Program-made: the position numbers and the translations under genes
Shown here: positions 19,549 through 58,013 of the stretch, piece after piece
How positions within the stretch are numbered: the stretch's first letter is position 1
How the letters are laid out: each line of letters begins with the position of its first letter
The notes under the pieces: model-generated
Databases searched by the model: none
Told to the model about the DNA's origin: nothing
Seen by the model: the letters and a program-made list of their open reading frames with translations, nothing else
Origin: Alphaproteobacteria bacterium
GTDB taxonomy: Bacteria > Pseudomonadota > Alphaproteobacteria > Rs-D84
Assembly (NCBI GenBank): GCA_017935245.1
Contig: JAGBHZ010000004.1
Location: 1,305-65,304 of the forward strand
Length of the DNA: 64,000 bases
Direction of reading: 5' to 3'

Positions 19549-19638
19549 GGATGGTTGGCAGAGCGGTCGAATGCGGCGGTCTTGAAAACCGTTGATGGGG
19601 CAACCCATCCGGGGGTTCGAATCCCTCACCATCCGCCA
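19549..19638 (+). tRNA. tRNA-Ser(TGA)
   Basis: GGATGGT acceptor stem, GCGGT-CTTGAAA-ACCGT anticodon arm, long variable arm, GGTTCGAATCC, GCCA. Confidence 0.95.
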
Positions 19639-19691: not shown

Positions 19692-21677
19692 TTATAGAAA
19701 CAGTTGTGTATCACGCATGGCCGGTTTTTCAATGGCCCGGTTCATATTATCTTGGCTGGATATGATATACGTTGCGTTTTTTGTTCTGGTTATTGCAGTG
19801 TATAAAATCTGGCGATTTAATAATGGACTGTTTTCAGATTCTGGCAAAATCACCAATATATTATTATATTCGGATCCCTGGGATTTATGTATTGTAATCG
19901 CGTACGCAGAATCAATCGCATCGGTTGGCAGTAAATACAACGGATAAAATATATAGTTCCCCATTTGCAGAATTAAATTCTGAACCGCGCCATCGGACGC
20001 ATCACTATTTTCTTTGACGCGTTTAATCATTATGTATTTCGTGCCTTTTATTGACACAACAACACCAATATCGCCGTTACTTAAATCGTACAGGTTTTGA
20101 TTCTTGGTTATAATTATCTGTTGACCAACAAAGAAATCCGTATCTGATTCAAGTTGATGCGTGGATTTTACATATTGGCAAATCGTTTTATTGATATTAT
20201 CGGTTCCACGCGCGCCATGATTTTCGGCACACAAAATTTTTGCGGTTTCCAGGTGCGACCATATTCCGTCAAGAACACGCAAGATGTCCCCAGATTGTAA
20301 ATCTAAATCAGAATATACGCGTTGATATTCTGGGGCATCATAAAAGGCGGCATACCATTCCCGGGGCGCGCAATCAATGGCATCTTCATCTGATATTGTT
20401 AAATATTTTACGGGATACTCTTTGATGCCGCGCTTTAAATTTTTCTGGTTGGTTTTTAATTCTTCTTGCCAGGTTGAACAATCAAAATCACACCAATCCA
20501 CCGCAACGGGTTCACCGTGTCGAATATGTTCTTTTAAATTGAATATTTCAGATTTTTCACGAAATCTTTGGCTTTTTGTTAATTCTATTAAACAATCGCG
20601 GCCACGATATTTTTGTGTCAAATCACAGAATACCGCCCCCGGTTGAACAGATGGTAACTGGTCTTTGTCCCCAAGGATAAATATGCGTGGACACTGGGTT
20701 TCATGCGACTGCGTTATTGTATTTAACAATTTAGCAAATAAAACAACGTCTATCATACTGGCTTCGTCTATTACAAAAACAGAATCTGATGGAAATTTCT
20801 TTGTTTCGTGCGTGTTAAAACCAGACAACCCCAACAGTCGATGAATTGTTATCGGTTCAACATCGGACAATATATCAATTTCTTCGCGGTGCGTTGATTT
20901 AATTTCGTCTTTTAAACCGTTAAGAACACCGGCAATACTTTCGCGCATTCTTTTGGCGGCCTTGCCACTGGGGGCGGCCATGTATATAGAACATCCCCCG
21001 TTCTTGGCAAGCATTTCCAACAGCAAATAACAAATAACCGTTGTTTTGCCCGTACCCGGACCACCGGTAACAATTAAATTACGGCCATTTTTCGCACGAA
21101 CAATTGCACGCGCCTGTTCCGGGGCCAGTTCAAATTTACGACCACTGTTATTGTCTGTGTAATCATATTTGGATTTAATGGACGCAACCGCGGCGTCTTC
21201 GTCGCCATGTTCGGGGGACGTGTTGGCATTTTCTGAAAACAGTAAATTTACAGATTCTTCGACAATTTGTTTGGCATTAAAAAACTTTTCCGTGAACAGC
21301 CACCCACGATATATCACAAACATATTATTTTTGCGTTCAATCCCGGGGGCGTCATATCGAAATACCAATGGGTTATCCGCGGGATATTGCGATATCGCCA
21401 AAATCCCACGGGATATGACCGTGTCATAATCTGTGGATATTGTCGCAGCGTCCAGACCCGCCAATTTTTCATGCCACTTTCTTTTTAATTCATTTTCATC
21501 AAGTGAAATACAAATATTCCCATCATCTATTAACGAAAAAAACACACAAAACAATTTCATAATATCGTCGGATACATGATATTCCTGGGCCAGCATAATC
21601 AAAACATATTCCCATGCATTGGAAATTGCCTTGGCTGCTTTTAATTCGTTAAAAATTTCTTTGAAGCCATTATCCAT
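19692..21677 (-). CDS. recD: Exodeoxyribonuclease V alpha subunit (SF1B helicase)
   Basis: TGGPGTGKTT, TIHRLLG, IDEASM, GDKDQLPSV, NGDIG, AITIHKSQGSEY; third gene of a recC-recB-recD operon. Confidence 0.9.
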   Translation of the reverse strand: MDNGFKEIFNELKAAKAISNAWEYVLIMLAQEYHVSDDIMKLFCVFFSLIDDGNICISLDENELKRKWHEKLAGLDAATISTDYDTVISRGILAISQYPADNPLVFRYDAPGIERKNNMFVIYRGWLFTEKFFNAKQIVEESVNLLFSENANTSPEHGDEDAAVASIKSKYDYTDNNSGRKFELAPEQARAIVRAKNGRNLIVTGGPGTGKTTVICYLLLEMLAKNGGCSIYMAAPSGKAAKRMRESIAGVLNGLKDEIKSTHREEIDILSDVEPITIHRLLGLSGFNTHETKKFPSDSVFVIDEASMIDVVLFAKLLNTITQSHETQCPRIFILGDKDQLPSVQPGAVFCDLTQKYRGRDCLIELTKSQRFREKSEIFNLKEHIRHGEPVAVDWCDFDCSTWQEELKTNQKNLKRGIKEYPVKYLTISDEDAIDCAPREWYAAFYDAPEYQRVYSDLDLQSGDILRVLDGIWSHLETAKILCAENHGARGTDNINKTICQYVKSTHQLESDTDFFVGQQIIITKNQNLYDLSNGDIGVVVSIKGTKYIMIKRVKENSDASDGAVQNLILQMGNYIFYPLYLLPTDAIDSAYAITIHKSQGSEYNNILVILPESENSPLLNRQILYTAITRTKNATYIISSQDNMNRAIEKPAMRDTQLFL

Positions 21678-24600
21678 TATAGATTCCTTTGATTACTTCT
21701 TTGAACGCGTTTTCCAATCGGTCATAATCGGCCCAGGTATGCGCATATATTCCATTGCCGGTCCCAGAATTACATCCGCGAACATAGACATAATAAATCC
21801 CACCAAAATGGTTGTTGAATATATCAGATTCAGATTGTTCTGGATAAAACTGGGCCAGCCATTTTATCAAACAATATGAATACAATACACGCTGGATTGC
21901 ATATCGTTCGTCGGTATGTGATTTCAGTGATTCATAGTTTGCATAGTCTTTGTCTGATTTGAATAAATCACTTTTCCAATCCAGTATCGAATACACCCGG
22001 CGGCCATCTATTTCGCGCACGAACAGCAAATCGATAAAACCATTACAATAATTTTTTAGCACATCTTTGTTATCGGGGTAAAAACCAAAATCAAATTCAA
22101 TCTCGGGCTTTCTGTCTTGATTCGTCAATGATGACAAACAAAATTTATTCCCAGTTGGATGATTTCCAATAATTTCTGGTATTTTCGCCGACATCGTGTT
22201 GATAATGTAACTGATGATTTCAGAATTTTTGCAATCAAACATATGTTTTTTGCAGCATTTTTCTATGATTGGTTTAAGATAATTTTTACGCGACGCATTA
22301 TCAGATTTTTCAAACACATTAAAATCAATACGCTCAAATATTTCATGAATTATTGTTCCGTATTGTTTGCCATACAAATCCGATGAAACATCAATTATAT
22401 TATTCGCGTCATAGATACCATCACGTATCGCAACTCCACAATCACAATCGTACCGATAGGTGGAAAAGTCGCCCGTGGCACCGGAATCATCTTCTTTGTC
22501 AATACGCTGTGTTTTTTCTGTTATCAAGATGTTCATATCTTCGCCGGTATCGTTTTTGTGATGCGATAATGACGTATAAGAATGCTTATACAATCGCTTT
22601 GACGACATTGGAATTGTACCAGGCACATCCGGCGCACTGTCCGTGCCGACAACATCATTTTTTTGCAAAATTGCCGCCGCACAATTATATGTGGCATCAG
22701 ATTTAACAAGTGCAAATAAATCCGGCATAGCGCTGTATTGGTCGATATTTGGACACCCCGACCATATCATCATCATCATCGAAGATGCGCGTGTAATTGC
22801 AACATATCGCAATGCATCAATATCTGATCTTTCTGGTTCTTGTTTTTCAGAAATATGCAGGTGTACTGTATCTTTGCCCGAATCATCACATTTGTGTTTA
22901 ACATGCACATATGTTTTATGTGCTGATTCTGCGCACATTAAATACACAGTTACCGGAAATTCCAACCCTTTGGCGGCGTGAATCGTGCTTATTTTTACAG
23001 TATCATTATCGGTGGACTTTTCCACAAGTTGCCCATCTTCGTCATTGGTCTTTTTATGTTTGCGTTGATTTAGAACCTGGGTTACGGTTGCAATTGATGC
23101 ATGTTTGGAAACAATATAATCCAGGATAAAATTCCCAACCTGGATATATTTTGTCAGGCTTTGGATTTTATCATAACTGGCCAGGCGTTCTGAAATCTTT
23201 GATTCTTCGATAATAGAATTAATCAATTTTGCATAATGTTTTGTTTCCGCCAGGTTGTGCCATTTTAACAACATCTGGCGTTCGGGACACAATATATTAT
23301 TGTATTTGTCGTTGTTTATGTCGCATATCGAAATATCAAAAAACGCCGTTTGCAGTGCCCGACGCAAAATGTTGCGGTTTGATGCATTAAAATCCGGGGC
23401 CGTTATGGCAGACAACAGCGCAACCCAATCCGCAGATTCCTTGGACATGAATAATGATGCGTCTTTGTACCACATAAATGGAATCTGGGCATGCGTCATT
23501 TTTTCAATTAAACCGGCCGCATCATCACGATTTCGAACCAATACCGTAAAATCCCCAAACGTTGCATTGCAATACGCATTTTTATCTTTGTGCCATATTT
23601 GTAGCGGGGTTTGACCAAAATTATCCGGCGTGCAATATTCAATTATTTTTGAAACGATTGTATCTTCGACCGTGATATATTTTTGTTCATCTGGGGACTG
23701 TTTTTCATGTAAAATAATATGAACGGGTTGTGTTACATTGCCATTTAATTTCGCCGGCATAATTGGATTTTTGGGTTCTGGGAATGTCGAATCCTGATAC
23801 GAATCTGCAATATCACCAACAACAATTTTATCCTTAGCAAGTACGTTTATCGCATTTATCATGGGTTCAGACGAACGATAATTTTCGTTTAATTCCCATA
23901 CCGCCACATTACGTTTGGTGTTATTTCTAATTTCTGTCTTGGCAACTTCATAAACCGCGGGGTCGGCACCCTGGAACGAATATATAGACTGCTTATTATC
24001 ACCAACAATTGTTATGTGATGGTCTGCGTCGGTGGTAAATATCTTTTTAAATATGTTCCATTGAATTTTATTAGTATCTTGGAATTCATCAATAATTGCG
24101 TATTTGTATTTATCCTTTAACACATCTAATAACTTGGACGATTTTTCTGTTATGGCATCATGAACAATTTTAATCATATCGCCATAGGTCTGCTGGTTCT
24201 TGTTTGTTTTTTCCAGTTGCCATGCCTGATAAATTTCTGTGATGTGTTTTATCACAAACCAACGGCGCAGTGCTTCGGGTTTGATTTCCTTTTTTTGGCG
24301 CCCCAGTTCCGCGACATCGCTTATTGTGGGCAACATTTTTATTATTTCGGTGGCTTTTTTATAACCCTGTTCTTCGGCGGGGGTTAATTTGTCCAGTGAA
24401 ATAATGTCTGGGTTTTCATGTGCACCATTTAGATAATATTTTTTTATTGCAGACGTCATGGCCGATAAAAACGGCTGGGGCGTGTTGTATAAATACATAA
24501 AAACGGGCGCTTCATTCTTAATCAAGGTATCACGTAAATACTTTCCAATAAATGTGTTTAGTTCCGCCCCTTCGTCAATCAACGTCATATTTTGCGTACA

Positions 24601-24981
24601 GTTCGCATATATGGCATTTTCTGTCAGGGTTTTCTGGCAAAAAGAGTTTATTGTAAATATTGGTGCATCATCAATTTTTTCAAGTTCTTGGTCTATTTTT
24701 GCCTTGTAACACAATGAACGCTCATCATTTTGACCGTTTAAAGCATCTGAGATTTCATTTAATTTCTTGCGGATTCTGTCGCGTAATTCACCGGTGGCCT
24801 TTTTCGTGTATGTAACGATTAGGATGTTAGACAGGCTGTAATCTGTGTTTTCTAACAACCACGGAACAACCAGTTCGGTAATTGTATATGTTTTGCCGGT
24901 GCCGGCGGATGCCTCTATGACCGTGTCCGTGGAACAATTAAAATCTTTGATACTGTGTATTTTTCTGATGTTATCTGACAT
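21670..24981 (-). CDS. recB: Exodeoxyribonuclease V beta subunit (UvrD-type helicase plus nuclease)
   Basis: IEASAGTGKTYTI, IDEFQDT, GDNKQSIYSF, STIHAAKGLEF; C-terminal nuclease GFIDLLF...LDWKS. Confidence 0.9.
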   Translation of the reverse strand: MSDNIRKIHSIKDFNCSTDTVIEASAGTGKTYTITELVVPWLLENTDYSLSNILIVTYTKKATGELRDRIRKKLNEISDALNGQNDERSLCYKAKIDQELEKIDDAPIFTINSFCQKTLTENAIYANCTQNMTLIDEGAELNTFIGKYLRDTLIKNEAPVFMYLYNTPQPFLSAMTSAIKKYYLNGAHENPDIISLDKLTPAEEQGYKKATEIIKMLPTISDVAELGRQKKEIKPEALRRWFVIKHITEIYQAWQLEKTNKNQQTYGDMIKIVHDAITEKSSKLLDVLKDKYKYAIIDEFQDTNKIQWNIFKKIFTTDADHHITIVGDNKQSIYSFQGADPAVYEVAKTEIRNNTKRNVAVWELNENYRSSEPMINAINVLAKDKIVVGDIADSYQDSTFPEPKNPIMPAKLNGNVTQPVHIILHEKQSPDEQKYITVEDTIVSKIIEYCTPDNFGQTPLQIWHKDKNAYCNATFGDFTVLVRNRDDAAGLIEKMTHAQIPFMWYKDASLFMSKESADWVALLSAITAPDFNASNRNILRRALQTAFFDISICDINNDKYNNILCPERQMLLKWHNLAETKHYAKLINSIIEESKISERLASYDKIQSLTKYIQVGNFILDYIVSKHASIATVTQVLNQRKHKKTNDEDGQLVEKSTDNDTVKISTIHAAKGLEFPVTVYLMCAESAHKTYVHVKHKCDDSGKDTVHLHISEKQEPERSDIDALRYVAITRASSMMMMIWSGCPNIDQYSAMPDLFALVKSDATYNCAAAILQKNDVVGTDSAPDVPGTIPMSSKRLYKHSYTSLSHHKNDTGEDMNILITEKTQRIDKEDDSGATGDFSTYRYDCDCGVAIRDGIYDANNIIDVSSDLYGKQYGTIIHEIFERIDFNVFEKSDNASRKNYLKPIIEKCCKKHMFDCKNSEIISYIINTMSAKIPEIIGNHPTGNKFCLSSLTNQDRKPEIEFDFGFYPDNKDVLKNYCNGFIDLLFVREIDGRRVYSILDWKSDLFKSDKDYANYESLKSHTDERYAIQRVLYSYCLIKWLAQFYPEQSESDIFNNHFGGIYYVYVRGCNSGTGNGIYAHTWADYDRLENAFKEVIKGIYNG

Positions 24982-24984
24982 AAT

Positions 24985-27900
24985 TTATTCCTTGGTTTCT
25001 GGGACAGATATCAATTTATCGTGTTCGTTCAGGGCCGCTTTGAATTCCTGGTAAAAATTATCTGCGGAAAACCCCAGGTCTGTATCCGGATCCAATAAAT
25101 CCTTGTTCGATATAGCAGACGGAATGAACGGATTATTAAAATAGCCCCTTTTAAGTTCGTCAAGTGATGAAACCTGTTTAATATTCCGTTCAAAGAAAGG
25201 TATGTATTTTCTATTATTTTCTATAAACGCAGATCTGTATATTTGATTCAATTTATCTTCGGCGATTTGCTTGGTCATGTTTGATATTTTTACCGCCAGC
25301 GCGGGGATTCCCCTATCGTTACTGATTATATGTGCCCTATATTTATGGTCGGGCACGGCAATTTGTGCAATTAGCGCATACAGTTCATGTTGATGTTTGG
25401 GTACTGAATTTAAACTGTTCACATATAAAAACACATCATTTTCTGTGTATGCGCACATAAAAATATCACCGCGCAAATCATACGATTTGCCATCACATCT
25501 TAGGCGAACGTTTATCGGATAGTTTGGTTTTATATCAATGTTGCAATCCCGAATTGCCAAGGCGATTCCAGCCCTGAATAACGCGATATGTCCTTCAATC
25601 TCTTGTTTAACGGCTTCGTATTCTTTTTTGTCAAACGGTTCGTTGGGTAACAAATCCCGAAAATCATCCATGCGCGGACGTTCGTCATCCAACAGGGGTT
25701 TAATTAAACGTCTTTGCAAGTTGTATTTTTCCAATGGTCCCAATTTTACATCTTCTAGTTCTTGGCATGATGTATCTTCTTCTTCGAAACCAAAAACACG
25801 ATTGGTATAGCATTTCAACGGATTTTCAATAAAATATCGAAATTCTGTTAATCTTACAACATCTGGCAAATCTGTTGCCGTGGGATTTTCGGGCGCCACA
25901 TGTGGATGCGCCGGGGACGGGGTCGTGTCATTTAAATTTATATAGACTTTTTTGTTCATGCGTTCGCGCGGCGTGTATAATTGGTCCCAATCACGTTTTT
26001 CATCAATCCCAACAGATTCCACCGCAACCCCGGCGTGGCGCGTCAAAATGTCCAGTGCACACGATGGATAAAAAGTATTATCTGTTTGCAAATCTTTGTT
26101 AACAAAACTGATATGTAATTCATCCGTGGTTCCCATAAACTGACACAAAAAGGCGTTTTTATTCTTTGATGGCACATCATCATCACCAATCTGCACCAGG
26201 TGCGAACGCCGATCCAATGCAATCTTGTTATTTGTACCCGGAAATTCATCAGAACCCATACCAATTAAAAACACATATTTAGCCGGCAAAATACGGTTCG
26301 CCAACAATGACGTAAATGTTACACCACGCGTAAATACCGTTCCGGTATTAAATTTAACATTGGATGCAATATCTATTAAAGACAGCAACACATATTCCAA
26401 TGGCATGGCAATCGTATTAAGTTTATATTGTTCCAATTTACGATTAATTTTGTCCAGGATGTATTTTTCTTTGGACACATTTTTGTTATCGCATTCGCTT
26501 AACGCAACCAGTTCATTGATAAACGTCTGGATATATTCAATGTCCACGCTTTCCAAAACGCGTTTGTGTTGAAACCGCCTAACCCATTTGTTTTTAACAT
26601 CATCAAATATTTTCACAAACTTTGTCAGCCAATCATTATCAGTGTCTTCGGTATTAAAGTCAGAAAATGGCATAACACGCCCGGATGAAAAATAAATTGG
26701 TTTATCCGTCAATTTTGCAATCAACAACCGATTAACTGCACTTTCCCAGTCATCAAAACTGTTACCGGCGGCGTCTGTGCCGTGGGCACGAAATACGCGC
26801 ATATTTTTAATCCAGGATTGAAAAACATTGGACACGTCATTATCAGTAATTTTGTATCGATTTTGAATCAAAGTGTTCTTGGTAAAACTAAAGAAATCCT
26901 TGCGACTAAAACCATTGTTATGCAATATCAAATACAATGTTTGCAGTACATCTAAAACAGCCGAATTTTTCCCACTGTAATCAACAATACTAAATGGAAC
27001 AAATGGATAATCGGGGTCCGTTTCATCAATTTGATTAAACACGGTTGTAATAACAGACTTGTACCGGTCAATATCAGGCGCCAGAACCAATATATCTTTT
27101 AAATTTGCGTTTTTTTCTTTTAATAATTTGCAAATTGATGAATGCACTATTTCTATTTCTTTGATTTTGGATGGAACACCAATAATCGTCAAAGATTCGT
27201 CGTTAATCAATCTTAGTTTTTCAGCATCTATTTTTTCATCATTGGCCATGGCATTTTGTATTCGCCCCAGCATCGTATTATTTTCATTTAGTGCCAATAT
27301 ATTGTGTGTCTGGTTGTTCGCATCAAACAATTCATGATTTTTTTGACCAAATTGCGCAAAATGCTTCAACAACAGGTTTTCGGATGCACATGGTTTTGGA
27401 ACCTGCAAATAAACACAGACATTAAACGTGTTGGACAATTCCTTTAACAAACGTCTGTATGTTTGTCCCATACCCGAAAAACCGAACACAAAAATATTTT
27501 GGTTTTCCAATGAGTTAAAGACTATTTTGCCGTCGTTTTCGCATCTGTTTTTTTCAGCCAATTCGGGACATGTGTAATAATGGACATCATTAATTATGAT
27601 ACCGTCGTTTATAATTTCATTATATAAATCTTTTTGCCAATCGGTGCCTGGTACCGCCACATCAATATTTTCACGGGTCGCTTCATATTCTATAAATAAT
27701 TTAGATAAATCATTGGCAAATTCAAACAGATGTTTGTAATCGATATCATCCATATTCCCATTAAAATTCAGATATTTTTCGATATTGTCGTTGCCCTTTA
27801 TTTTTTCTAGGTAGCATTGTCCATCGGGCCGCGACAGAAGTTTTTGCATAATAACATCACGCAATAAATCCGGCGACAAAAGGGCCTGGGGGGCGTCTGT

Positions 27901-28119
27901 CTTCATCAAATCAAACAAAAATGATTCCAGGCGTGCCGTGCGCAAATTCATTGGAACGCCACGATTTTCCAGGACATGCAATTTGAACCACTGTTCTGTT
28001 TTTGAATCTGTAAAAACAATGACGGGCGAAACAAAAGGATCGGTCCAACAATCCCTGATTTTTTGTAACATATCATCCGCCAATGCACGTGGCGACAAAG
28101 ATGTAATAATATTTAACAT
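24985..28119 (-). CDS. recC: Exodeoxyribonuclease V gamma subunit
   Basis: DPF..PVIV, FVFGFS, EIEIVH, DILVLAPDI..Y, GVTF, C-terminal FIENP; precedes recB. Confidence 0.85.
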   Translation of the reverse strand: MLNIITSLSPRALADDMLQKIRDCWTDPFVSPVIVFTDSKTEQWFKLHVLENRGVPMNLRTARLESFLFDLMKTDAPQALLSPDLLRDVIMQKLLSRPDGQCYLEKIKGNDNIEKYLNFNGNMDDIDYKHLFEFANDLSKLFIEYEATRENIDVAVPGTDWQKDLYNEIINDGIIINDVHYYTCPELAEKNRCENDGKIVFNSLENQNIFVFGFSGMGQTYRRLLKELSNTFNVCVYLQVPKPCASENLLLKHFAQFGQKNHELFDANNQTHNILALNENNTMLGRIQNAMANDEKIDAEKLRLINDESLTIIGVPSKIKEIEIVHSSICKLLKEKNANLKDILVLAPDIDRYKSVITTVFNQIDETDPDYPFVPFSIVDYSGKNSAVLDVLQTLYLILHNNGFSRKDFFSFTKNTLIQNRYKITDNDVSNVFQSWIKNMRVFRAHGTDAAGNSFDDWESAVNRLLIAKLTDKPIYFSSGRVMPFSDFNTEDTDNDWLTKFVKIFDDVKNKWVRRFQHKRVLESVDIEYIQTFINELVALSECDNKNVSKEKYILDKINRKLEQYKLNTIAMPLEYVLLSLIDIASNVKFNTGTVFTRGVTFTSLLANRILPAKYVFLIGMGSDEFPGTNNKIALDRRSHLVQIGDDDVPSKNKNAFLCQFMGTTDELHISFVNKDLQTDNTFYPSCALDILTRHAGVAVESVGIDEKRDWDQLYTPRERMNKKVYINLNDTTPSPAHPHVAPENPTATDLPDVVRLTEFRYFIENPLKCYTNRVFGFEEEDTSCQELEDVKLGPLEKYNLQRRLIKPLLDDERPRMDDFRDLLPNEPFDKKEYEAVKQEIEGHIALFRAGIALAIRDCNIDIKPNYPINVRLRCDGKSYDLRGDIFMCAYTENDVFLYVNSLNSVPKHQHELYALIAQIAVPDHKYRAHIISNDRGIPALAVKISNMTKQIAEDKLNQIYRSAFIENNRKYIPFFERNIKQVSSLDELKRGYFNNPFIPSAISNKDLLDPDTDLGFSADNFYQEFKAALNEHDKLISVPETKE

Positions 28120-28176: not shown

Positions 28177-28228
28177 TATAAAAACCCCAATTTTTGCGCA
28201 ATAAATCATATGACAGACCGGGGGGATA

Positions 28229-28435
28229 TTATTCCCCCGGGCACGCCTTGGTTGATTTAACCGTATTTGACCAAAGCCACAAAATACTTAATATAAACCC
28301 AGAAAAATTCAGGATAAAATCCAGGCCTGACATATAATATTCCATACATGCCGCACCATAAAGATAGACCGCCGAAGAAAACGAAAGCAGCCATACACCA
28401 ATAAATATCATTGTTTTTATTATCATATTTGTCAT
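28229..28435 (-). CDS. Small 2-TM membrane protein
   Basis: AAGGAGG SD before MTNM; two hydrophobic segments; 22 bp after the AAA ATPase stop. Confidence 0.6.
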   Translation of the reverse strand: MTNMIIKTMIFIGVWLLSFSSAVYLYGAACMEYYMSGLDFILNFSGFILSILWLWSNTVKSTKACPGE

Positions 28436-28457
28436 ATCGGGTTCCTCCTTTTTTTTG

Positions 28458-30527
28458 TTAAAAACCAATTTTTGCCTTATTTTTTTGTATTTTTTTAACC
28501 TGTTGTTCTTGGCGTAATCTGGCCAACAGTTCCGATTTATCTGTGATATCCATCAGGTCGGCCTGTCTTTTAACCACGGCAAAATCACCAGGGGCCAAAT
28601 TTAATAAATCAGAAACTTCATCGGCACAAACCGTCTGGCCAAAGAAATCTTGAAACGCCATTACAACCTGGGGCGGGGTTAGGAAATCATATTTCACCTT
28701 GAACGAGAATCTGCGCAATGCCGCACGGTCTATGTTATCCATCAAATTTGTTGTACAGATAAACGGGTATTCGGCGGATTCCATCTGGGTCAACATTTCG
28801 TTAACACTGCTGACCTGCCATGATTGTTTGGCGTTGATACGATCCATCAGGAAACTGTCCGCTTCGTCAAATACCAGAATTGCTTTTTTATCGTGCGCCT
28901 CTTGAAAGGCACGGGCAATATTTCGTTCCGTTTGACCAACATAGGAACCATTAATATCACTGGCACGTTTTTTTATTATATTCATCCCCAATAAATCCGC
29001 CAAATATTCACAAAATGCGGTTTTGCCCGTGCCGGGCGCACCATACAGGCACAACGAAAAGTTTTTCAGATTTTTTACACTGATTTGATGCGCTAATTTT
29101 TCCAGATTCATATCTGTATTCAACAGGCCTGTGTTAAATTTTACACCGTCTGTTTTTTTATTCCGCGTCGATTGGCCGGTCATTGCACGCATCAAATTAT
29201 CAATCGTATAATCTATGATATGACAATCGTTCATGATTTTGGCATTTTTTACCGCGGTATCAATTACAGATAGCGGAACCGCATATTTCGATACAATTCG
29301 ACGTAATTCTGTATCAGAGATTTCAAGGTCATATTTTTCAAATATCCGACGCCATGTGTTGATTTTTGCACGCTCGTCGGGGTCGGTCATTTCCAGCGCC
29401 ATGGTAAATCTGCGAACATATGCACGGTCCATATCTTCGATATTATTTGTTATCCATATCACGGGACGTTTATTATTTTCCAGGATGCGATTTATGTATA
29501 ACTTGCTGGGGGTGTTGCGACTGTACGGTGATAAACAGAATACATCTTCGGCTTCGTCAAACAAGATAACGGAATCATTGTCTTTGTTCAGCACCGTTTG
29601 CAGATGTGCCAGATTGGACAGGCGCGCATCTTTGTCTTCTTGGTTTTCGGCGGTTGTGTATAAATTCAACCCCAGTTTATCACATATAGTTTTGGCAATT
29701 TCTGTTTTGCCGGTTCCGGGACGACCATACAATAATATATTTACACCCGCCTGGGTTTTAGCAACGCCACCCGACAAAATATCTGAAATTTTATCAAAGT
29801 CATCGGCCATATAATCAAAATTTTCGCGTTTCAAATTTGCAGACAATGGACACCCAATCAGGACATCACGAACATCCTTGCATGAATTAAAATTCATATT
29901 CAGCAAATTTAAGAACATTGGACTGAACGCATTATCACCATAGCGATGTTTTATTATACCCGCTTCGACCAGTGCACCGTTCGGCGACATTATCTCTTTG
30001 ACGCGTTCGGCGGGAATTTTACACACCGCGGATACAAAATCACTGTTAATGTCATCCATAAAATCATTGTTGATTCCATCGTTAAACGCAGTCAGCAATC
30101 GACGTATCGTCGTATTCTTCTTCATATAAATCCAGAATTGTAACAGACGCCGACAATCAGATGATAAATCAAATGTATCACATATGATTGTAAAGTTCTT
30201 GTCGAAATCGGGGCATGTTATATCGATTGTGTAATCCAATTTTCTGGAATCAAAAATGCCAGAAACCTGTTCATATAATTCATCTTTGGCCAAAATACTG
30301 TTGCGATACAATTTACCGTTCAACAGGTTGACAACAAATTCCACTTTGTCGGTGGATGTTACGCGACCTTCGCCACTGTTCAGTAAATCACGCAAACAGA
30401 AACCAAACAAATCCATGGAACATCTGGATAACTGATGAAAAAAGATATCAACATCTTCTGGTTCGTATTCACTGTTGGTTATATTCTTTAAATAGTGTAA
30501 TGCAATTTGTCTGTCTTTTACGTTCAT
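28458..30527 (-). CDS. Double-domain AAA+ ATPase (SpoVK/CDC48-like)
   Basis: Two Walker A motifs (GRPGTGKT, GAPGTGKT), two Walker B motifs (LFDEAE, VFDEAD), RRF arginine fingers, C-terminal IGF. Confidence 0.9.
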   Translation of the reverse strand: MNVKDRQIALHYLKNITNSEYEPEDVDIFFHQLSRCSMDLFGFCLRDLLNSGEGRVTSTDKVEFVVNLLNGKLYRNSILAKDELYEQVSGIFDSRKLDYTIDITCPDFDKNFTIICDTFDLSSDCRRLLQFWIYMKKNTTIRRLLTAFNDGINNDFMDDINSDFVSAVCKIPAERVKEIMSPNGALVEAGIIKHRYGDNAFSPMFLNLLNMNFNSCKDVRDVLIGCPLSANLKRENFDYMADDFDKISDILSGGVAKTQAGVNILLYGRPGTGKTEIAKTICDKLGLNLYTTAENQEDKDARLSNLAHLQTVLNKDNDSVILFDEAEDVFCLSPYSRNTPSKLYINRILENNKRPVIWITNNIEDMDRAYVRRFTMALEMTDPDERAKINTWRRIFEKYDLEISDTELRRIVSKYAVPLSVIDTAVKNAKIMNDCHIIDYTIDNLMRAMTGQSTRNKKTDGVKFNTGLLNTDMNLEKLAHQISVKNLKNFSLCLYGAPGTGKTAFCEYLADLLGMNIIKKRASDINGSYVGQTERNIARAFQEAHDKKAILVFDEADSFLMDRINAKQSWQVSSVNEMLTQMESAEYPFICTTNLMDNIDRAALRRFSFKVKYDFLTPPQVVMAFQDFFGQTVCADEVSDLLNLAPGDFAVVKRQADLMDITDKSELLARLRQEQQVKKIQKNKAKIGF

Positions 30528-30573
30528 ATGTGCCCCCTTTGGTCGGTCTTTATTGGGAATATAAACAACAAGT

Positions 30574-30590
30574 TGGACAAAAATGGTCCA
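30574..30590. promoter_or_regulatory. Candidate WYL-regulator operator TGGAC-N7-GTCCA
   Basis: Perfect palindrome between the divergent AAA and WYL genes, 10 bp upstream of a TATATT -10 (30558-30563, - strand) that has no -35. Confidence 0.65.
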
Positions 30591-30658
30591 TTTTCCCCTT
30601 GTGCTTTATTTTTTTATGCATATAATTAAAATAAAACGAATAAAACCCGGGGAAACAA

Positions 30659-31723
30659 ATGCCAGAATTACGAAAAAGCCATAAAAAAACAGACATAAAA
30701 CTGGAAATTATTAACGAATTGCGCGCCCGCTCCATGACATACGATGACATCCGGGCTTTTTTATCCAGGGTGTACAGACAACACGGGAAAATACCAAAAA
30801 ATTGTAAAAATCCGGCCGAATATACCGTATGCAAACGGACCGTTAACCGCGCAATTGAATCAATCCGGCAATCTTATAGAAATCAACTGGATTTTAACAA
30901 GGCGTTCGGGGTATATAAACTGGAATTGCATGACTTTCCCGATACAATCAGCGAAACAGAAATCCAGGCGCTGGATGTTGCCATAAAAAAAATGGGAAAC
31001 AATGTAAATGCACGCAAAATACTGGGGGATTTAAAGACAAAACTGACCACGCGTCTGTATCGTAAAATCCAACATACCGAACCGTTAAAAGCCGCACGCA
31101 AAATCAACGATATCGACCAGAAAATCAATGCAAACCACGCATTTGTTGGACCACAATTGGTTGTAAACTTTGACGAAAATGTTAAGCGCATCCTGGATTC
31201 TGCAATAAGCAGACAGCACAAGGTTTCTTTTAAATACTATAAAAACAACACAACCGTGTGTCCGTTGGGTATAATATATGGACCGAATAATGTGTATTTG
31301 ATTGCGTATGACTGCAAAGAACCAATCGTTTCGCGCGTGCCACGTCATTATATATTGTCTGAGATTTCAAATATTTCCCAAACCGGGGATTGGTTTGCGC
31401 GCGACGATGGTTTTTCAATCGAAGATTATGCAAAGTCTATGTTTGGAATATATAACGATGGAACAATATATGATGTAGAATGGTTAATCAAAGATAAACT
31501 CACAATCAGAATCGCAAAAAAATATAAATTCCATCCCACCCAAGAATTTATCAATAATCCAGAAGATGGCAGTTTGACGGTAAAAATGAAGACGGGTGGC
31601 CTGCGCGCGATAAGCGTATTTTTGGCACAATGGGGTGGAAAAATCATACCAATCGCCCCGCAAGAGTTAATTGATGAATATAAAAAACTGTTAAAAAACT
31701 GCCTGGACAGCATCAACAATTAA
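30659..31723 (+). CDS. HTH-WYL-WCX transcriptional regulator
   Basis: HTH-like RTVNRAIESIR; WYL-like VSFKY...VCPLGI...YLIAY...RHYILSEI; FGIY and FHPTQ in the WCX region. Confidence 0.88.
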   Translation: MPELRKSHKKTDIKLEIINELRARSMTYDDIRAFLSRVYRQHGKIPKNCKNPAEYTVCKRTVNRAIESIRQSYRNQLDFNKAFGVYKLELHDFPDTISETEIQALDVAIKKMGNNVNARKILGDLKTKLTTRLYRKIQHTEPLKAARKINDIDQKINANHAFVGPQLVVNFDENVKRILDSAISRQHKVSFKYYKNNTTVCPLGIIYGPNNVYLIAYDCKEPIVSRVPRHYILSEISNISQTGDWFARDDGFSIEDYAKSMFGIYNDGTIYDVEWLIKDKLTIRIAKKYKFHPTQEFINNPEDGSLTVKMKTGGLRAISVFLAQWGGKIIPIAPQELIDEYKKLLKNCLDSINN

Positions 31724-31821
31724 ACACCCCACATATGGGGTATTTTTTATTGCATATTTTTATTGTAAAAACACAAAATCCGTATAATATATATGCGTAT
31801 ATAAATTTAAGGATTAAAAAC

Positions 31822-33183
31822 ATGCCAGCAAAAACAGTTAATGATATCGTTGCATTATGCAAACGCCGTGGTTTTATTTTTACAGGTTCTGAAATTTATG
31901 GCGGATTGGGGGGCGCATATGACTATGGTCCGTATGGGGTTGAATTGATGAAAAACATCCGCAATGCATGGTGGAACGCAATGATTTATTCGCGCAATGA
32001 TGTCGAAGGATTGGATGCGGCACTGATATCTAATCGACTGTTGTGGAAATATTCTGGACACGAAGCGGGCTTTTCAGACCCATTGGTCGAATGTAAAAAA
32101 TGTGGCACACGTATGCGCCAAGATAAAATGAAAGACCAGACAAAATGTGATAACTGTGGTTCAACAGAAATTACAGAACCACGCGCGTATCAATTGATGA
32201 TGGGCCTGTCGATTGGGGCAACGGCCGACGGGGCAATTAACGCATACCTGCGCCCGGAAACCGCAACAACAACATATACAAACTTTAAGAACGTATTGGA
32301 TGCAAAACCACACAAATTGCCATTTGGTATCGCCCAGATTGGCAAGGCGTTCCGTAACGAAATTTCACCACGCGGATTCGTTTTCCGTATGCGTGAATTT
32401 GAACAGGCCGAATTACAATACTTTGTGCACCCAACCCAGGACGAACAATATCATAAAATGTGGATGGAAACCCGTCTGGCATGGTGGGTGAACGAATTGG
32501 GAATACCGGCGGAAAAATTACGTTTTATGCCACATGAAAAATTGGCACATTATGCCAAGGCCGCCGTCGATATCGAATACGAATTCCCAGATGGATTTGA
32601 CGAAGTCGAAGGTATCCATAATCGCCAGGACTTTGACCTGGGGTCGCATACCAAGGGACAAAAAGAATTTGAAATTCATGCAAATGTCCTGGAAAACAAA
32701 GACAGTACAACTAAATTATCTTATTCAGACCCGCAGACGGGCGAAAACTTTATCCCGTATGTTATTGAAACCGCAATGGGGGTTAATCGCGCAATGCTGG
32801 CCGTCATGCTGGAAGCATATACCGAAGAAGATTTGGGTGATGGAAAATCACGCGTGGTATTGAAATTAAAACCAAAACTGGCCCCGGTTAAGGCCGCGGT
32901 TATACCATTGGCACGAAATGTTCCAGAATTGCTGGAAATCGCAACAAATATCGAAAACGATTTGCGTAAACTGGCAATTGGACGTATCGAATTGGAAAAT
33001 TCGGGCAATATCGGTAAAAATTACCGTCGCCATGACGAAATTGGTACACCGGTTTGCATCACAGTCGATCACCAAACAATGGAAGATAAAACCGTTACCC
33101 TGCGCCATCGGGACAGCATGGCCCAAGAACGCATCGCAATCCAAGACGTACCAAAACGCATACTGGAAATTGTGAACGGTTAA
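31822..33183 (+). CDS. glyQS: Glycine--tRNA ligase, homodimeric (alpha2) type
   Basis: KRRGF...SEIYGG...DYGPYG, YLRPET, AQIGKAFRNEI, FRMREFEQ, IGKNYRRHDEIGTP. Confidence 0.93.
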   Translation: MPAKTVNDIVALCKRRGFIFTGSEIYGGLGGAYDYGPYGVELMKNIRNAWWNAMIYSRNDVEGLDAALISNRLLWKYSGHEAGFSDPLVECKKCGTRMRQDKMKDQTKCDNCGSTEITEPRAYQLMMGLSIGATADGAINAYLRPETATTTYTNFKNVLDAKPHKLPFGIAQIGKAFRNEISPRGFVFRMREFEQAELQYFVHPTQDEQYHKMWMETRLAWWVNELGIPAEKLRFMPHEKLAHYAKAAVDIEYEFPDGFDEVEGIHNRQDFDLGSHTKGQKEFEIHANVLENKDSTTKLSYSDPQTGENFIPYVIETAMGVNRAMLAVMLEAYTEEDLGDGKSRVVLKLKPKLAPVKAAVIPLARNVPELLEIATNIENDLRKLAIGRIELENSGNIGKNYRRHDEIGTPVCITVDHQTMEDKTVTLRHRDSMAQERIAIQDVPKRILEIVNG

Positions 33184-53201: not shown

Positions 53202-55190
53202 ATGAGAAGTACATTCTGGAATATCATCGGTGTAATTGCCGTTATAATTGCAATTTTTTTCGCATATAAAATAACCAAGGAGAAACTAATGAGTGCAGGT
53301 ATCGACACAGCAAATATGGATATGACGGTTAAACCGGGCGATAATTTTTATGATTTCGCGACACGCGGATGGCGTGATGCGAACCCGATTCCAGATGACT
53401 ATTCCCGATTTGGCGCGTTCGAAGTTTTACGTAACACAAATCTGGAACGCAGTCGTGAAATTGCAGAAAACGATACGGGTAAAATTGGCACACTTTATAA
53501 AATCATTATGGACACCGAAAAGCGTAATGCCGATGGGGTTGCGCCTGTAAAAAAATACATGGATGAAATTGACGCAATAACAGGCCCCAATCAATTACCA
53601 CAATATCTGGGGAAAATGCATACATTTTCGTCCGCATTCTGGGGGGATGGGGTTGCCCTGGACGAAATGGACAGCACGCATTACATATATAACATCGGCC
53701 AGGGTGGAATTGGCCTGTCGCGGGATTATTATTTTGACACAGACACTAAATCGGTTGAAATACGCAACGAATATAAAAAATATATCGCACGGCAATTAAA
53801 GAATTTTGGCATTGTGGGCGATGCAGAAAAATTATACGCATTGGAAGAACGCATGGCAAAATCATTTCATACAAAAGAAGTTCTGCGCGATCCACATGCA
53901 AACTATCATAAAATGACATTAGCAGATGTAAAAAAAGAATTCCCAGAATTTAATTGGGATACATACCTGGTGGCGCGTGGCGCGGCGGCGGCAACGGTTA
54001 TTAATATTAATCAGCCCGATGCAATAAAAACATCTATCGAAATTATGAACGATACAGATTTTGAATTAATTAAAACATATTTAAAGTATCGAATTGCAAA
54101 TTCAGCGGCCAGCCTGCTGGATGACGCGTCTTATGAAATCGCATTTGATTTTTATAATCGAAAAATGGCGGGACAAAAAGAACCTAAGCCACGGTGGAAA
54201 CGTGCGGTTTCAATGTTGGATGATGCACTGGGGGATTTGGTTGGACAATTGTATGTTGAAAAATACTTCCCGGCGGCCGCAAAAAAGCGCATGGAAACAT
54301 TGGTGCAAAATCTGCAACGCGCATATGCAATTAGAATTGAAAACCTGGCGTGGATGTCAGATGAAACCAAACAAAAAGCACTGGAAAAATTATCCACATT
54401 CCGGGCCAAAATTGGATACCCAAACAAATGGCGCGATTATTCAAAAATGAAAATCGACGCAAACAAATCCCTGTGGGAAAATATGGTTGATGTATCCGCA
54501 CACGAAGATGCGTTTTGGCTAAATAAGATTGGTGCAGAAAAAGACCCAACCATTTGGTACATGAACGCACACGAGGTTAATGCATACTATGACCCATCAA
54601 CAAACGAAATCTGTTTCCCGGCGGGGATTTTACAGTATCCGTTCTTTGACATGGCGGCCGATGATGCATTTAACTATGGTGCGATTGGTGCGGTTATTGG
54701 ACATGAAATGACACACGGTTTTGACGATATGGGACGCAAGTTTGATAAGGATGGAAACCTGAAAGATTGGTGGACATTACTGGATGCGGCACGCTTTGAT
54801 GTACGGGCCAAGGTAATGCGCGAATTTTTTGATAAAATAAAAATTAATGACGAAGTTCATGCAAACGGCGAATTTACGTTGGGTGAAAACCTGGCGGATT
54901 ATGGTGGGGTAACAATCGCATATACGGCATATAAAAACTTTGGTACACCATCAAACACATCGGCGGGTTTAACACCAGAAATGCGCTTCTTTATCGCATA
55001 TGCGGGCGCATGGGCACAAAACATTCGCCCCGACGAAGAATTACGCCTGACAAAAATTGATGAACACAGCCTGGGCAAAAATCGCGTAAATGGAATCCTG
55101 GTTCATATTGATGCATGGTATGATGCATTTGACATTAAACCAGACGATAAAATGTACGTTGCACCACACGAACGCGTAAAACTGTGGTAA
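53202..55190 (+). CDS. M13 (neprilysin/PepO) metalloendopeptidase
   Basis: VNAYY, FPAGILQ, HEMTH, GENLADYGG; N-terminal TM anchor (alternative start 53289). Confidence 0.93.
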   Translation: MRSTFWNIIGVIAVIIAIFFAYKITKEKLMSAGIDTANMDMTVKPGDNFYDFATRGWRDANPIPDDYSRFGAFEVLRNTNLERSREIAENDTGKIGTLYKIIMDTEKRNADGVAPVKKYMDEIDAITGPNQLPQYLGKMHTFSSAFWGDGVALDEMDSTHYIYNIGQGGIGLSRDYYFDTDTKSVEIRNEYKKYIARQLKNFGIVGDAEKLYALEERMAKSFHTKEVLRDPHANYHKMTLADVKKEFPEFNWDTYLVARGAAAATVININQPDAIKTSIEIMNDTDFELIKTYLKYRIANSAASLLDDASYEIAFDFYNRKMAGQKEPKPRWKRAVSMLDDALGDLVGQLYVEKYFPAAAKKRMETLVQNLQRAYAIRIENLAWMSDETKQKALEKLSTFRAKIGYPNKWRDYSKMKIDANKSLWENMVDVSAHEDAFWLNKIGAEKDPTIWYMNAHEVNAYYDPSTNEICFPAGILQYPFFDMAADDAFNYGAIGAVIGHEMTHGFDDMGRKFDKDGNLKDWWTLLDAARFDVRAKVMREFFDKIKINDEVHANGEFTLGENLADYGGVTIAYTAYKNFGTPSNTSAGLTPEMRFFIAYAGAWAQNIRPDEELRLTKIDEHSLGKNRVNGILVHIDAWYDAFDIKPDDKMYVAPHERVKLW

Positions 55191-55213
55191 TAAAAATCCC
55201 CCAGACGGGGGAT

Positions 55214-55444
55214 TTATTTTTTTATTTTTCTATAATTTTTTGCCCACAACATATTGCACGCTTCGGCAAATATTTTATGTATTAATTCATTGCTGGGTAA
55301 TATTTTTCCATGCTCGATACGGGCCAGCGTCCTTCTGGGGATATTTAGTATTTTTGCCATATCCCCGCGCCCCATGCGCGCACTGCGCCGCCCCATACGT
55401 ATTGCATTACCATAAAATTTTGCATCAATTAAAACAATTGCCAT
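55214..55444 (-). CDS. Small XRE-family helix-turn-helix protein
   Basis: GNAIR..RR...M....MAKIL.I....LARIE.GK..P; AGGGG SD. Confidence 0.8.
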   Translation of the reverse strand: MAIVLIDAKFYGNAIRMGRRSARMGRGDMAKILNIPRRTLARIEHGKILPSNELIHKIFAEACNMLWAKNYRKIKK

Positions 55445-55493
55445 AATTATCCCCCTATCTTTTTGTTAAACAAAAAACCGCCACATCAAAAAG

Positions 55494-55562
55494 GCGGTTG
55501 GAGGTTAACAACTATTAACAGTAATAGCGTCGCTTATTGGATATTCACGACCCTCCAACCAT
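55494..55562 (-). ncRNA. C4/CI-like antisense RNA (element 1)
   Basis: Basal stem GGTTGGAGG/CCTCCAACC encloses two hairpins; exposed CTGTTAA and GTTGTTAA are complementary to upstream TTAACAG and TTAACAAC. Confidence 0.65.
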
Positions 55563-55625
55563 GGTTGGAGTTTTTTTCTGTTAAGAGGTTGTTAAGCCCC
55601 GCACTGGTTTCCCAATGCATATCGT

Positions 55626-55654
55626 ATTATATCGAATAAAAACATCAGATTCAA
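55626..55654 (-). promoter_or_regulatory. sigma70-like promoter of element 1 / XRE gene
   Basis: TTGAAT-17-TATAAT on the - strand. Confidence 0.75.
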
Positions 55655-55690
55655 CACTTTGATAAATAAATATTTATCGTACAAAATACG

Positions 55691-55737
55691 TTAGTTAAGT
55701 ATTTTGTCATCCCCGCGTTCGGCGACGGGATTTTTTT
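55691..55737. repeat. Remnant of the dispersed palindromic repeat family
   Basis: TGTCATCCCCGCG (55705-55717) is the reverse complement of 58882-58894; TTAGTTAAGTATTTT is shared with 3163-3177. Confidence 0.55.
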
Positions 55738-57325: not shown

Positions 57326-57436
57326 TTTTACTACCCCGTCTGGATTGACAGTATAATACAAAAACAAATTATATTACAAGCAAAATTCATTATATTTTTT
57401 AACGAATTGTGAATTTTGTCTTGTCTGTGATTTTAA

Positions 57437-57883: not shown

Positions 57884-57993
57884 TTCTGCGTCTTGTGCTT
57901 TTATGTTTTGGGGCGCGCCCCGGGTTAATCTTTCCGTCTTCGTACAACGAATTTAGCACAAGCATTTATGGTTGTCAATGACAATTCATAATT

Positions 57994-58013
57994 ATTTTAT
58001 GGTATTTTATGGT
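57994..58013. promoter_or_regulatory. Candidate MraZ operator (10 bp direct repeat)
   Basis: ATTTTATGGT x2 plus TTTATGGT at 57965-57972, around a TTGACA-17-TAAATT promoter of mraZ. Confidence 0.45.

Follow-up and report, generated by a model that had tools for sequence, protein, structure and literature searches.

The window analysed here, a 64,000-nucleotide stretch of contig JAGBHZ010000004.1 from an alphaproteobacterium, contains a divergent pair of genes, one for a WYL-domain regulator (P0002) and one for an ATPase with two AAA+ domains (P0001), and the spacer between them holds a perfect palindrome, referred to below as the box. The locus is best explained as an accessory and horizontally mobile two-gene module with variable cargo. 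The product of the WYL gene would be a dimeric activator of the DriD family, and the box TGGACC...GTCCA would fill the -35 slot of the divergent promoter. That P0002 acts as a DriD-type activator of the AAA operon we consider probable, and the core of the proposal, a DriD-type switch with this unfoldase as its main output, is the reading towards which we lean. The output of the operon would then be a double-ring unfoldase of the Cdc48/Rix7 type and, in this genome only, an orphan membrane protein of 68 amino acids (aa).

The features on which the argument turns are these, with positions in the window:

28458..30527, minus strand: AAA gene, 689 aa (P0001), with two AAA stretches by Pfam.
30659..31723, plus strand: WYL gene, 354 aa (P0002), with WYL and WCX by Pfam and the DriD-family layout of winged helix-turn-helix, three-helix bundle, WYL and WCX.
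30528-30658: intergenic spacer between the AAA and WYL genes, 131 bp.
30574..30590: the palindrome or DriD-type box, exact TGGACAAAAATGGTCCA, read on the minus strand as TGGACCATTTTTGTCCA, in the place of the would-be -35 of the AAA promoter.
30558..30563, minus strand: -10 hexamer TATATT of the AAA operon, without a -35.
28458..28475, minus strand: codons of the candidate ClpP-docking tail, AKIGF and stop.
28229..28435, minus strand: open reading frame (ORF) of 68 aa with two hydrophobic segments, co-oriented with the AAA gene.

All three genes are where the first-pass annotation of this DNA had placed them, and so are the 131-bp spacer, the exact palindrome and, 10 bp from it, TATATT.

By its sequence P0002 is a protein of the DriD family. 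When a profile of the family (A4), made from 36 WYL homologs in related loci, is searched against the chains of solved structures, full-length DriD (8tp8_A) is matched at E 3.9e-75 with 256 bits, and profile positions 3-328 run along chain positions 19-338. The nine matches at E <=0.001 are all to DriD or PafBC; those other than DriD are four PafB, PafC and PafBC chains, from 5.3e-9 to 5.4e-8, and no solved chain of CapW or BrxR is matched by this profile at E 0.001. The earlier likening of the regulator to DriD, with a layout of helix-turn-helix (HTH), WYL and WCX, is borne out by the full-length match. A search with the single sequence of P0002 also has DriD chains as its only solved relatives (E 1.6e-14, residues 164-341), and it is the family profile, not the single sequence, that supports the HTH, with an alignment that begins at DriD residue 5. 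The two proteins are collinear over their full length, and K59-R60-T61 of P0002 stand opposite R36-R37-T38 of DriD, with R60 at the position of Arg37 and T61 at that of Thr38. Arg37 is reported to read a conserved guanine of the DriD box (PMC10853764). Between helix 2 of the HTH and the recognition helix, at residues about 35-55, P0002 has some 20 residues more than DriD and most members of the family.

Single-stranded DNA (ssDNA) is a reasonable candidate for the ligand of P0002. Seven residues of DriD are named as ssDNA contacts (PMC9186387), and three of the seven are identical in P0002 (the equivalents of Y168, Y192 and R204), W206 being replaced conservatively by Y. P0002 is the one gene of the DriD-type WYL family in the genome. 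RecA is present, and no LexA is found in the 902-kb genome (92.5% complete), from which it follows that a response here would be SOS-independent by default. The more remote relative PafBC of mycobacteria is also a WYL activator of promoters that lack a -35, there by sigma adaptation, and its profile similarity to the family is weak (E 5e-9 to 5e-8); it differs in being a heterodimer or a fused tandem, and is far more distant from P0002 than DriD is. PafBC is encoded beside the Pup-proteasome locus.

Consider now the promoter of the AAA gene. The hexamer TATATT, read on the minus strand from 30563 to 30558, stands 10 nt from the 17-mer palindrome and 12 nt from its GTC core. No -35-like hexamer occurs at 16-18 nt from TATATT, and a sigma-70 scan gives no promoter there. 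When a 17-nt spacer is assumed, the would-be -35 takes in the final base of GAC together with five of the N7 bases; these are the same bases of the DriD box that are replaced in the 'optimised -35' oligo of PMC13004042, the register being equal if that oligo uses a 17-nt spacer. The same paper describes promoters of DriD as having no recognisable -35 and a constant interval between box and -10, and states that in the bidirectional driD promoter it is the divergent operon, not driD itself, that DriD activates (PMC13004042). The layout in the window is the same as that of the bidirectional driD promoter, with the box facing the divergent operon. With the box in the -35 slot, 12 nt from the -10, the AAA promoter would need the bound activator for recruitment of RNA polymerase, as has been demonstrated with Caulobacter DriD. 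Because the box stands there at a constant interval from the -10, as at DriD promoters, activation is favoured over repression.

The box itself, GGAC-N7-GTCC at 30575-30589, has the A/T-rich centre AAAAATG and retains G2, C4, G12 and C14 of the DriD dyad xCGxC-N7-GxCGx, in which the G and C positions are highly conserved (PMC10853764). The genome scan for TGGAC-N7-GTCCA finds one exact site, the window's own, in 902 kb. With one mismatch allowed, the palindrome is matched five times in the window against 1.19 expected, and three of 100 shuffles reach five. The palindrome is significant because it is conserved in homologous spacers, and not because of the bare pattern. In the two closest loci of the same genus the 17-mer survives in a spacer that has otherwise diverged, unchanged in one locus and with two substitutions in its centre in the other; in a third genome (G001) the same motif stands before several genes of a 10-kb cluster. 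The first ten promoters that were read all have GTC, then 12 nt, then TAnnnT.

To count the box more widely, consider 81 loci with 1.12 Mb in total, consisting of the window and the best 80 of 568 tblastn-confirmed stretches fetched with the AAA protein. The relatives are for the most part labelled as Candidatus Enterousia or as uncultured Alphaproteobacteria of the gut, and a few as Deferribacterales, Chitinispirillales and Planctomycetaceae. The pattern of GAC, seven bases with at least five A/T, GTC, 11-13 nt and TAnnnT has 72 matches in these loci; 20 first-order Markov simulations gave 5.55 on average and 9 at most. The box comes in two types. Loci whose AAA protein is closer to that of the window have TGGACCAwTTTTGTCC, and distant loci have ACGACAwwwwTTGTCGT, which approaches the Caulobacter consensus ATACGAC-N7-GTCGTAT (PMC10853764). 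Boxes before genes always read GACCA...GTC along the direction of transcription, and this fixed orientation fits a site that is integrated in a putative promoter. The presence of a box was scored within 300 nt upstream of the AAA gene, one locus with too little upstream sequence being dropped. Among loci with an AAA identity of at least 65% the box is found in 14 of 16, the two misses being genes truncated at the 5' end, which leaves 14 of 14 intact genes; at 50-65% identity it is found in 6 of 6. In all 20 intact closer relatives, then, the spacer has kept the box, and its conservation, which had been proposed as a test of the palindrome, stands for this group. The palindrome can accordingly be kept as what it had been taken for, the putative operator of the regulator: a conserved box of DriD type, with DriD-like geometry and without a -35.

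The regulator and the ATPase are also linked as genes. When the ORFs of the 81 loci are clustered, the AAA gene is present in 79 and a single WYL cluster in 59; the next commonest neighbour, a Cas4-like DUF2779 protein of 489 aa, is present in 18, and no cluster other than WYL exceeds this number. The WYL gene is divergent in close relatives and lies in tandem downstream of the AAA gene in many distant ones. Among 328 genomes of the order, 39 have both AAA and WYL, seven have AAA only, ten have WYL only and 272 have neither, which gives totals of 46 genomes with AAA and 49 with the WYL family (Fisher p 6e-34, a value inflated by kinship among the genomes). From this split it follows that the pair is accessory and travels together. 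The recurrence of WYL with AAA, one of the claims to be examined, is thus found both in the flanks (59 of 81 loci) and across genomes (39 of the 46 that bear AAA). One genome (G213, contig C3, about 53637-58346) has a second AAA copy near a WYL gene; the copy is fragmented, with one in-frame TAA and with its N- and C-terminal parts matched separately, and is apparently a module in decay.

What varies is the cargo. In relatives it includes a Cas4/DUF2779 nuclease, an MBL-fold hydrolase, an FtsK-like ATPase and an HNH-like protein, and the genes that are preceded by a box, besides the AAA gene, encode an FtsK/SpoIIIE-like ATPase, an MBL-fold hydrolase, two proteins that belong to no known family (134 and 159 aa) and a conserved protein of 56 aa. 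The last is soluble and takes the slot after the AAA gene in several close relatives (L027, L028, L030, L032, L067), the slot being used in others by the Cas4/DUF2779 nuclease gene; in two loci it has its own promoter with a DriD-type box. It belongs to no known family and may be an adaptor or partner of the ATPase. The only other box of TGGACC type in the genome of the window lies on contig C10 (L119) at about 2974-2990, 12 nt from TATAAT, just downstream of McrB- and McrC-like genes, and faces ORFs of 60 aa (with an internal repeat) and 52 aa followed by Nudix and Nudix-ASCH genes; it has the appearance of a further promoter of this regulon. In 9-10 loci (L054, L056, L058, L060, L067 and others) the genes for the anaerobic ribonucleotide reductase, nrdD and that of its activase, are found no more than 8 kb from the AAA gene, and 13 loci have ankyrin-repeat genes; neither kind has a box assigned to it.

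In the window the slot after the AAA gene is taken by the 68-aa ORF. The frame at 28229-28468 on the minus strand codes for 79 aa if read from TTG and for 68 aa if read from the ATG at 28435, and AAGGAGG, a strong Shine-Dalgarno sequence, precedes this ATG by 9 nt. The product has hydrophobic peaks near residues 4-26 and 38-56 (the 17-residue Kyte-Doolittle value exceeds 1.6), and a G+C-rich hairpin at 28218-28241 spans the stop codon. The ORF looks expressible and would be an orphan cargo of this genome only. No family is matched in the Pfam, PADLOC or phage-family searches, and the 328 genomes contain no credible homolog, only three marginal matches at E 0.002-0.005 in unrelated frames. This gene with two transmembrane segments is accordingly not counted in the conserved module, and the relatives carry other genes in its place. 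An analogy can be drawn to DidA, a DriD-induced membrane inhibitor of division with 71 aa and one transmembrane helix (PMC4211646), in that the 68-aa ORF is also a small membrane protein behind a DriD-type promoter. It is an analogy only: the ORF has two hydrophobic segments where DidA has one helix, no detectable similarity to any protein, and no counterpart in the related loci.

The ATPase consists of a helical N-domain (residues 1-250), a first AAA domain, D1 (about 257-450), a second, D2 (about 470-650), and a disordered tail that ends in KIGF. A model of the full-length protein has a predicted local distance difference test score (pLDDT) of 83.7 and a predicted template-modelling score (pTM) of 0.59. 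The 30 top rows of a Foldseek search with this model are all Rix7, NVL, Cdc48, p97 or Afg2, at E 1.6e-16 to 1.7e-14 and with query-normalised TM-scores of 0.37-0.45. Walker A and Walker B are invariant in D1 and in D2 among 32 homologs, down to 38% identity, and the pore loop [YWF][VI]G of D2 is present in 32 of 32 aligned homologs. By sequence D2 is a classical AAA domain (PF00004, E 9.8e-41), and D1 is closer to clamp-loader and RuvB modules. The reading of the gene as a two-domain AAA+ ATPase of 689 aa is upheld by Pfam and by fold, both of which give a tandem D1-D2. On its model, P0001 would be a type II double-ring AAA+ unfoldase like Cdc48 and Rix7, with the D1 and D2 motifs intact. It resembles Cdc48/p97, Rix7/NVL and Afg2/Drg1 in the tandem fold and in the aromatic-hydrophobic-glycine pore loop of D2, and differs from them in D1, in the [I/M]GF tail and in a helical N-domain with a winged-helix-like part that is unmatched to Cdc48 N-domains. 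In the ESM Atlas, residues 1-250 fall in unnamed clusters only, one of which has PF22977 WHD on 11% of its members; this was not used.

The tail was not to be expected. Residues 680-689 are disordered, with pLDDT below 50 for KIGF (686-689), and G688 and F689 are invariant nonetheless. Of 120 homologs, 107 have the motif [ILMV]GF no more than four residues from the C-terminus; six of the other 13 carry it farther inside and four are fragments. [LIV]-G-[FL] is the consensus tripeptide by which partners dock on ClpP, and the known partners of ClpP include ClpX, ClpA, ClpC and ClpE. The genome encodes ClpP and ClpX, the latter with the loop RRGIGFGA, and neither HslV nor a proteasome-type peptidase was found in it. 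When three copies of ClpP (alignment A3) are predicted together with residues 640-689 of the AAA protein (alignment A1), the complex scores 0.63, against 0.01 for the best of three controls. Of 80 solved complexes 58 attain that mark, and of 110 mismatched pairs 2 do. At least 70% of the contacts are common to the runs, and the pLDDT of the partner does not fall below 47. Residues 685-689 of the AAA protein are predicted to contact residues 25-26, 29, 31, 63, 65, 93, 115, 117 and 192 of one ClpP copy and residues 51-52, 54-56, 58 and 85 of the adjacent copy, positions which, shifted by three residues, would correspond to the hydrophobic pocket used for docking in E. coli ClpP.

Docking of the tail on ClpP is therefore a serious possibility as far as the predicted complex goes, one that we would place somewhat below an even chance. 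The tail has in common with ClpX the tripeptide after basic residues, and its predicted site is the cleft between adjacent ClpP subunits, in the way that the IGF loop of ClpX docks in clefts of ClpP (PMC12383707). It differs in that its motif is at the extreme C-terminus of a double-ring AAA+ protein of the classical clade, and in that the ClpP partner in the ClpX case is a single-ring ClpX-type or HCLR-clade unfoldase, the binding of P0001 being a prediction.

Put together, the proposed chain is as follows. Damage, or the processing of foreign DNA, would switch on the activator and the unfoldase would be made; its flexible C-terminal [I/M]GF tail would dock in the hydrophobic clefts of ClpP; and a new, inducible specificity of the ClpP protease would thereby be created. 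The computational results show the family of the regulator, how the box is kept and placed, the linkage of the genes and their patchy spread, the fold of the ATPase and the conserved motifs. We infer the ssDNA trigger, the sign of the regulation (activation rather than repression), the ClpP partnership and the substrate, and for the whole chain from regulator to ClpP our confidence is tentative, with the balance leaning against it.

Several observations weigh against parts of this reading. The bare palindrome is about as frequent as chance would have it, roughly once per genome by a hand estimate from genome size and ten fixed bases. The box becomes rarer with distance, from 7 of 11 loci at 43-50% AAA identity to 9 of 45 below 43%, and overall it precedes the AAA gene in only 36 of 78; far from the window's group, either another operator is used or the AAA gene is not directly targeted. 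Among the ssDNA contacts, S172 is N and K202 is V in P0002, and R178 falls within a deletion of five residues, which would allow that the ligand of P0002 differs from that of DriD. The N-domain model, although its pLDDT is 88, has no Foldseek match in PDB at E <=0.001, and in the VIA comparison its best match has Z 6.6, to winged-helix proteins over residues about 101-218 and below the range rated informative. The motif [ILMV]GF is missing from three of the 120 homologs, and the IGF of ClpX is on an internal loop, not at the C-terminus. The complex score may echo the solved ClpXP structures, was obtained with the analysis's own alignments, and with three ClpP copies lies outside its calibration. 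Finally, the patchy distribution fits a role in defence or in a mobile element as well as a response to damage.

The strongest rival concerns the ATPase alone. P0001 could be a stand-alone remodeller that takes proteins off damaged DNA or the replisome through its winged-helix-like N-domain, with the GF serving self-assembly or another partner. The proteins closest to it in fold (Rix7, NVL, Cdc48 and Afg2) work for the most part with no peptidase fused or docked to them, D1 is similar to modules of the clamp-loader and RuvB type, and the box regulon of the relatives is rich in DNA enzymes. A part of the N-domain also resembles winged-helix domains, those of DnaD (N-terminal domain) and LexA (DNA-binding domain) among them, at Z 4.7-6.6; this may be a common arrangement and is below the level rated informative, and no Cdc48 N-domain appears in the VIA-wide list for it. 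What such a remodeller would leave hard to explain is a disordered tail with an invariant [I/M]GF after basic residues; the prediction, well separated from its controls, puts this tail into the cleft of ClpP. We regard this alternative as doubtful, though a real contender.

A second rival concerns the regulator. P0002 could be a repressor of the CapW/BrxR type that is released by ssDNA formed in the course of phage attack, with the AAA protein as an anti-phage or abortive-infection effector. CapW and BrxR share the winged HTH-WYL-WCX layout and a palindromic operator by a divergent or adjacent accessory operon, CapW with ssDNA as its signal (PMC11662680), and such repressors of defence systems are documented (PMC11662680, PMC9122601). 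The module is accessory (46 of 328 genomes), its cargo includes the nuclease, hydrolase, FtsK-like and HNH-like proteins listed above, and the second box adjoins McrBC. In PADLOC the genes of the module (P0001-P0003) and the cargo genes have no system-level match, only domain-level ones to IetA, TRIP13, Cas4, SspH-like and PDC-S07, and no known defence system is found by it. IetA is the best PADLOC and NCBIfam name for D2 of P0001 (2e-34 and 2.6e-31): it scores 117.6 bits in PADLOC, and in NCBIfam (NF042959) 109.1 bits against a cut-off of 510, with D2 only aligned. IetA is a single AAA domain of about 370 aa, no gene for the protease IetS stands beside the AAA gene, its next genes being recC and the WYL gene, and the operon of the window has no protease partner gene. 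CapW and BrxR are repressors of CBASS and BREX, and the promoter here lacks a -35, with the box in its place at the fixed -10 distance that is the geometry of a DriD activator (PMC13004042) and with the box orientation following transcription; the solved-structure matches at E <=0.001 are to the activators DriD and PafBC only. We consider the repressor unlikely, and note that a defence output is compatible with activation, only the repression being disfavoured. Of the proposed roles, DNA-damage response or abortive infection, either would fit the data; the AAA protein is the probable output, and the membrane protein is incidental.

A third possibility is that the pair belongs to a phage-like or integrative element, in which WYL couples induction to DNA damage and AAA serves replication, packaging or transfer. 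P0001 matches phrog_10401 'ATPase' at E 2.6e-89 over residues 93-689, and one phage-labelled scaffold carries the pair: its AAA protein ends in ...PIGFIH, the next gene in tandem is an ORF of 340 aa, which hhalign aligns to the WYL profile with 97% probability and E 1.2e-10, and a CGAC-N7-GTCG site precedes the AAA gene. Boxes in G001 precede an FtsK/SpoIIIE-like gene and small ORFs in the 10-kb cluster, and the stretch in the window lies beside a tRNA gene. That scaffold is the only one of 50,697 phage records with a relative of P0001, and it is faecal, of 57% G+C and marked unverified. In the window from 19.5 to 33 kb no integrase, capsid or terminase gene is seen, and the neighbours vary as described. 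We hold this reading to be quite improbable. The last rival, which takes the palindrome for a product of chance and the genes around it for unrelated ones, can draw on the chance-level count of the exact site and on the roughly one-in-ten expectation, by our own arithmetic, of a perfect 5-N7-5 palindrome in 131 bp, and is refuted as next to impossible by a box kept while its flanks diverge, by 72 matches against 5.55 expected, by fixed spacing and orientation, and by strong co-occurrence of the genes.

Set beside Caulobacter crescentus DriD, the likeness is extensive: the host is again an alphaproteobacterium, and the box is again GAC-N7-GTC with an A/T-rich centre that replaces the -35 at a fixed -10 distance in a bidirectional promoter. 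The differences lie in the outer bases of the half-site, which are TGGACC in the close group and ACGAC in the distant group against ATACGAC for DriD; in the roughly 20 extra HTH residues and the three of seven ssDNA contacts of P0002; in an accessory family (49 of 328 genomes) where DriD is a core regulator; and in a regulon of AAA unfoldase, small proteins and nucleases where that of DriD has didA, recA, recJ, bapE and dnaG. A simple ortholog of the divergent operon of Caulobacter DriD was considered and rejected, since what lies there (CCNA_03891/CCNA_01149) is described as a TonB-dependent transporter (PMC13004042) and is not an AAA gene. The 69 homologs of DriD in Supplementary Table S4 of PMC10853764 may include relatives of P0002.

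The remaining features of the region are these:

30599..30626, plus strand: probable promoter of the WYL gene, TTGTGC-16 nt-TATAAT, read from the sequence, beginning 9 nt past the box.
31726..31741, plus strand: terminator-like hairpin and T-run, 3' of the WYL gene, between it and glyRS.
19692..28119, minus strand: recD, recB and recC, by Pfam and NCBIfam.
28176-28148: recC promoter TTGAAA-17-TATAAT, 11 of 12 matches in the sigma-70 scan.
19549..19638, plus strand: tRNA-Ser(tga), left border of the 12-kb stretch (recDBC, the transmembrane ORF, AAA, WYL).

The promoter of the WYL gene is probable, its -35 having three of six matches and being unlisted by the sigma-70 scan. The long glyRS ORF, 31735-33183, probably starts at the ATG at 31822, the family profiles aligning from residue 30, and the terminator hairpin of the WYL gene overlaps the first codons of this long ORF.

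The proximity to recCBD needs separate treatment. The recCBD genes adjoin the AAA gene in 2 of the 81 loci, the window and L028, and in both recC has its own sigma-70-type promoter, as the first-pass annotation had noted for the window; no DriD-type box precedes recC in the window. That recCBD is part of the WYL regulon does not hold for the window. Of 41 relatives, one was found to have recC, and among the 328 genomes of the order four were; all four also have AAA and WYL (Fisher p 1.7e-4, from a small sample of kin genomes), with WYL within 2.6 kb of recC in three of them. G135, whose contig coincides with L028, has the arrangement of the window with a different far flank; in G126 (L118) WYL is directly divergent from recC, and a one-mismatch box, 12 nt and TATTTT point at recC; in G076 recC is on a contig of 3.9 kb and the AAA/WYL pair on another. 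The window genome and 12 of 12 other same-genus genomes sampled have an AddB-like gene, below the curated cut-off; over the whole sample such a gene was present in 21 of 21 genomes. In G013 the block of tRNA-Ser, lgt and the next gene abuts glyRS with a gap of 316 nt, and the 12-kb stretch from recD to WYL is missing. The recCBD genes are an acquired extra in this lineage. An argument for transfer from G+C alone was rejected, because the difference between the stretch (0.37-0.40) and its flanks (0.41-0.46) is too small; so was the notion of a hot spot for defence genes upstream of glyRS, since G003 has a leucine-rich repeat (LRR) protein, a hydrolase and an HD protein there, and G006 has RlpA, MurJ and BamD-type housekeeping genes.

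The proposed link of the module with recCBD thus stands in part: adjacency is rare and no box of recC is seen in the window, and the four recC genomes all carry the pair, three of them with WYL close to recC, in a small sample of kin genomes. Some comparative support that RecBCD and the sensor belong together is thereby obtained, and it is suggestive. In the recC-bearing genomes the sensor gene travels with the enzyme, which suggests a self-contained surveillance island for DNA ends in which RecBCD would produce the signal. The extended proposal, in which P0001 founds a new class of ClpP partners, is made only when the DriD-type sensor detects ssDNA and thereby, on DNA breakage or the processing of foreign DNA, directs ClpP to new targets, and forms with RecBCD a surveillance island for DNA ends, is one that we find unlikely in its entirety, though not negligible.

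DriD itself is known from one model organism, where its regulon consists of genes for repair and division. A mobile WYL/AAA pair that recurs in many small gut bacteria has not been described within the scope of our search: in the main text of openly accessible articles, neither this WYL/AAA pairing nor an unfoldase with a C-terminal IGF is found. The pair presents the DriD-type switch as a mobile cassette in genome-reduced gut Alphaproteobacteria, in a genome where no LexA is found, and its most conserved target, a protein unfoldase, would offer a testable output of WYL sensing beyond repair genes and defence operons. The box, with its fixed spacing of 12 nt and its two types (TGGACC and ACGAC), provides a data set for the co-evolution of WYL activators and operators. 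If the IGF docking is true, P0001 would be a new architectural class among the few partners of ClpP, and the sensing of DNA damage or phage would be linked to regulated proteolysis without SOS.

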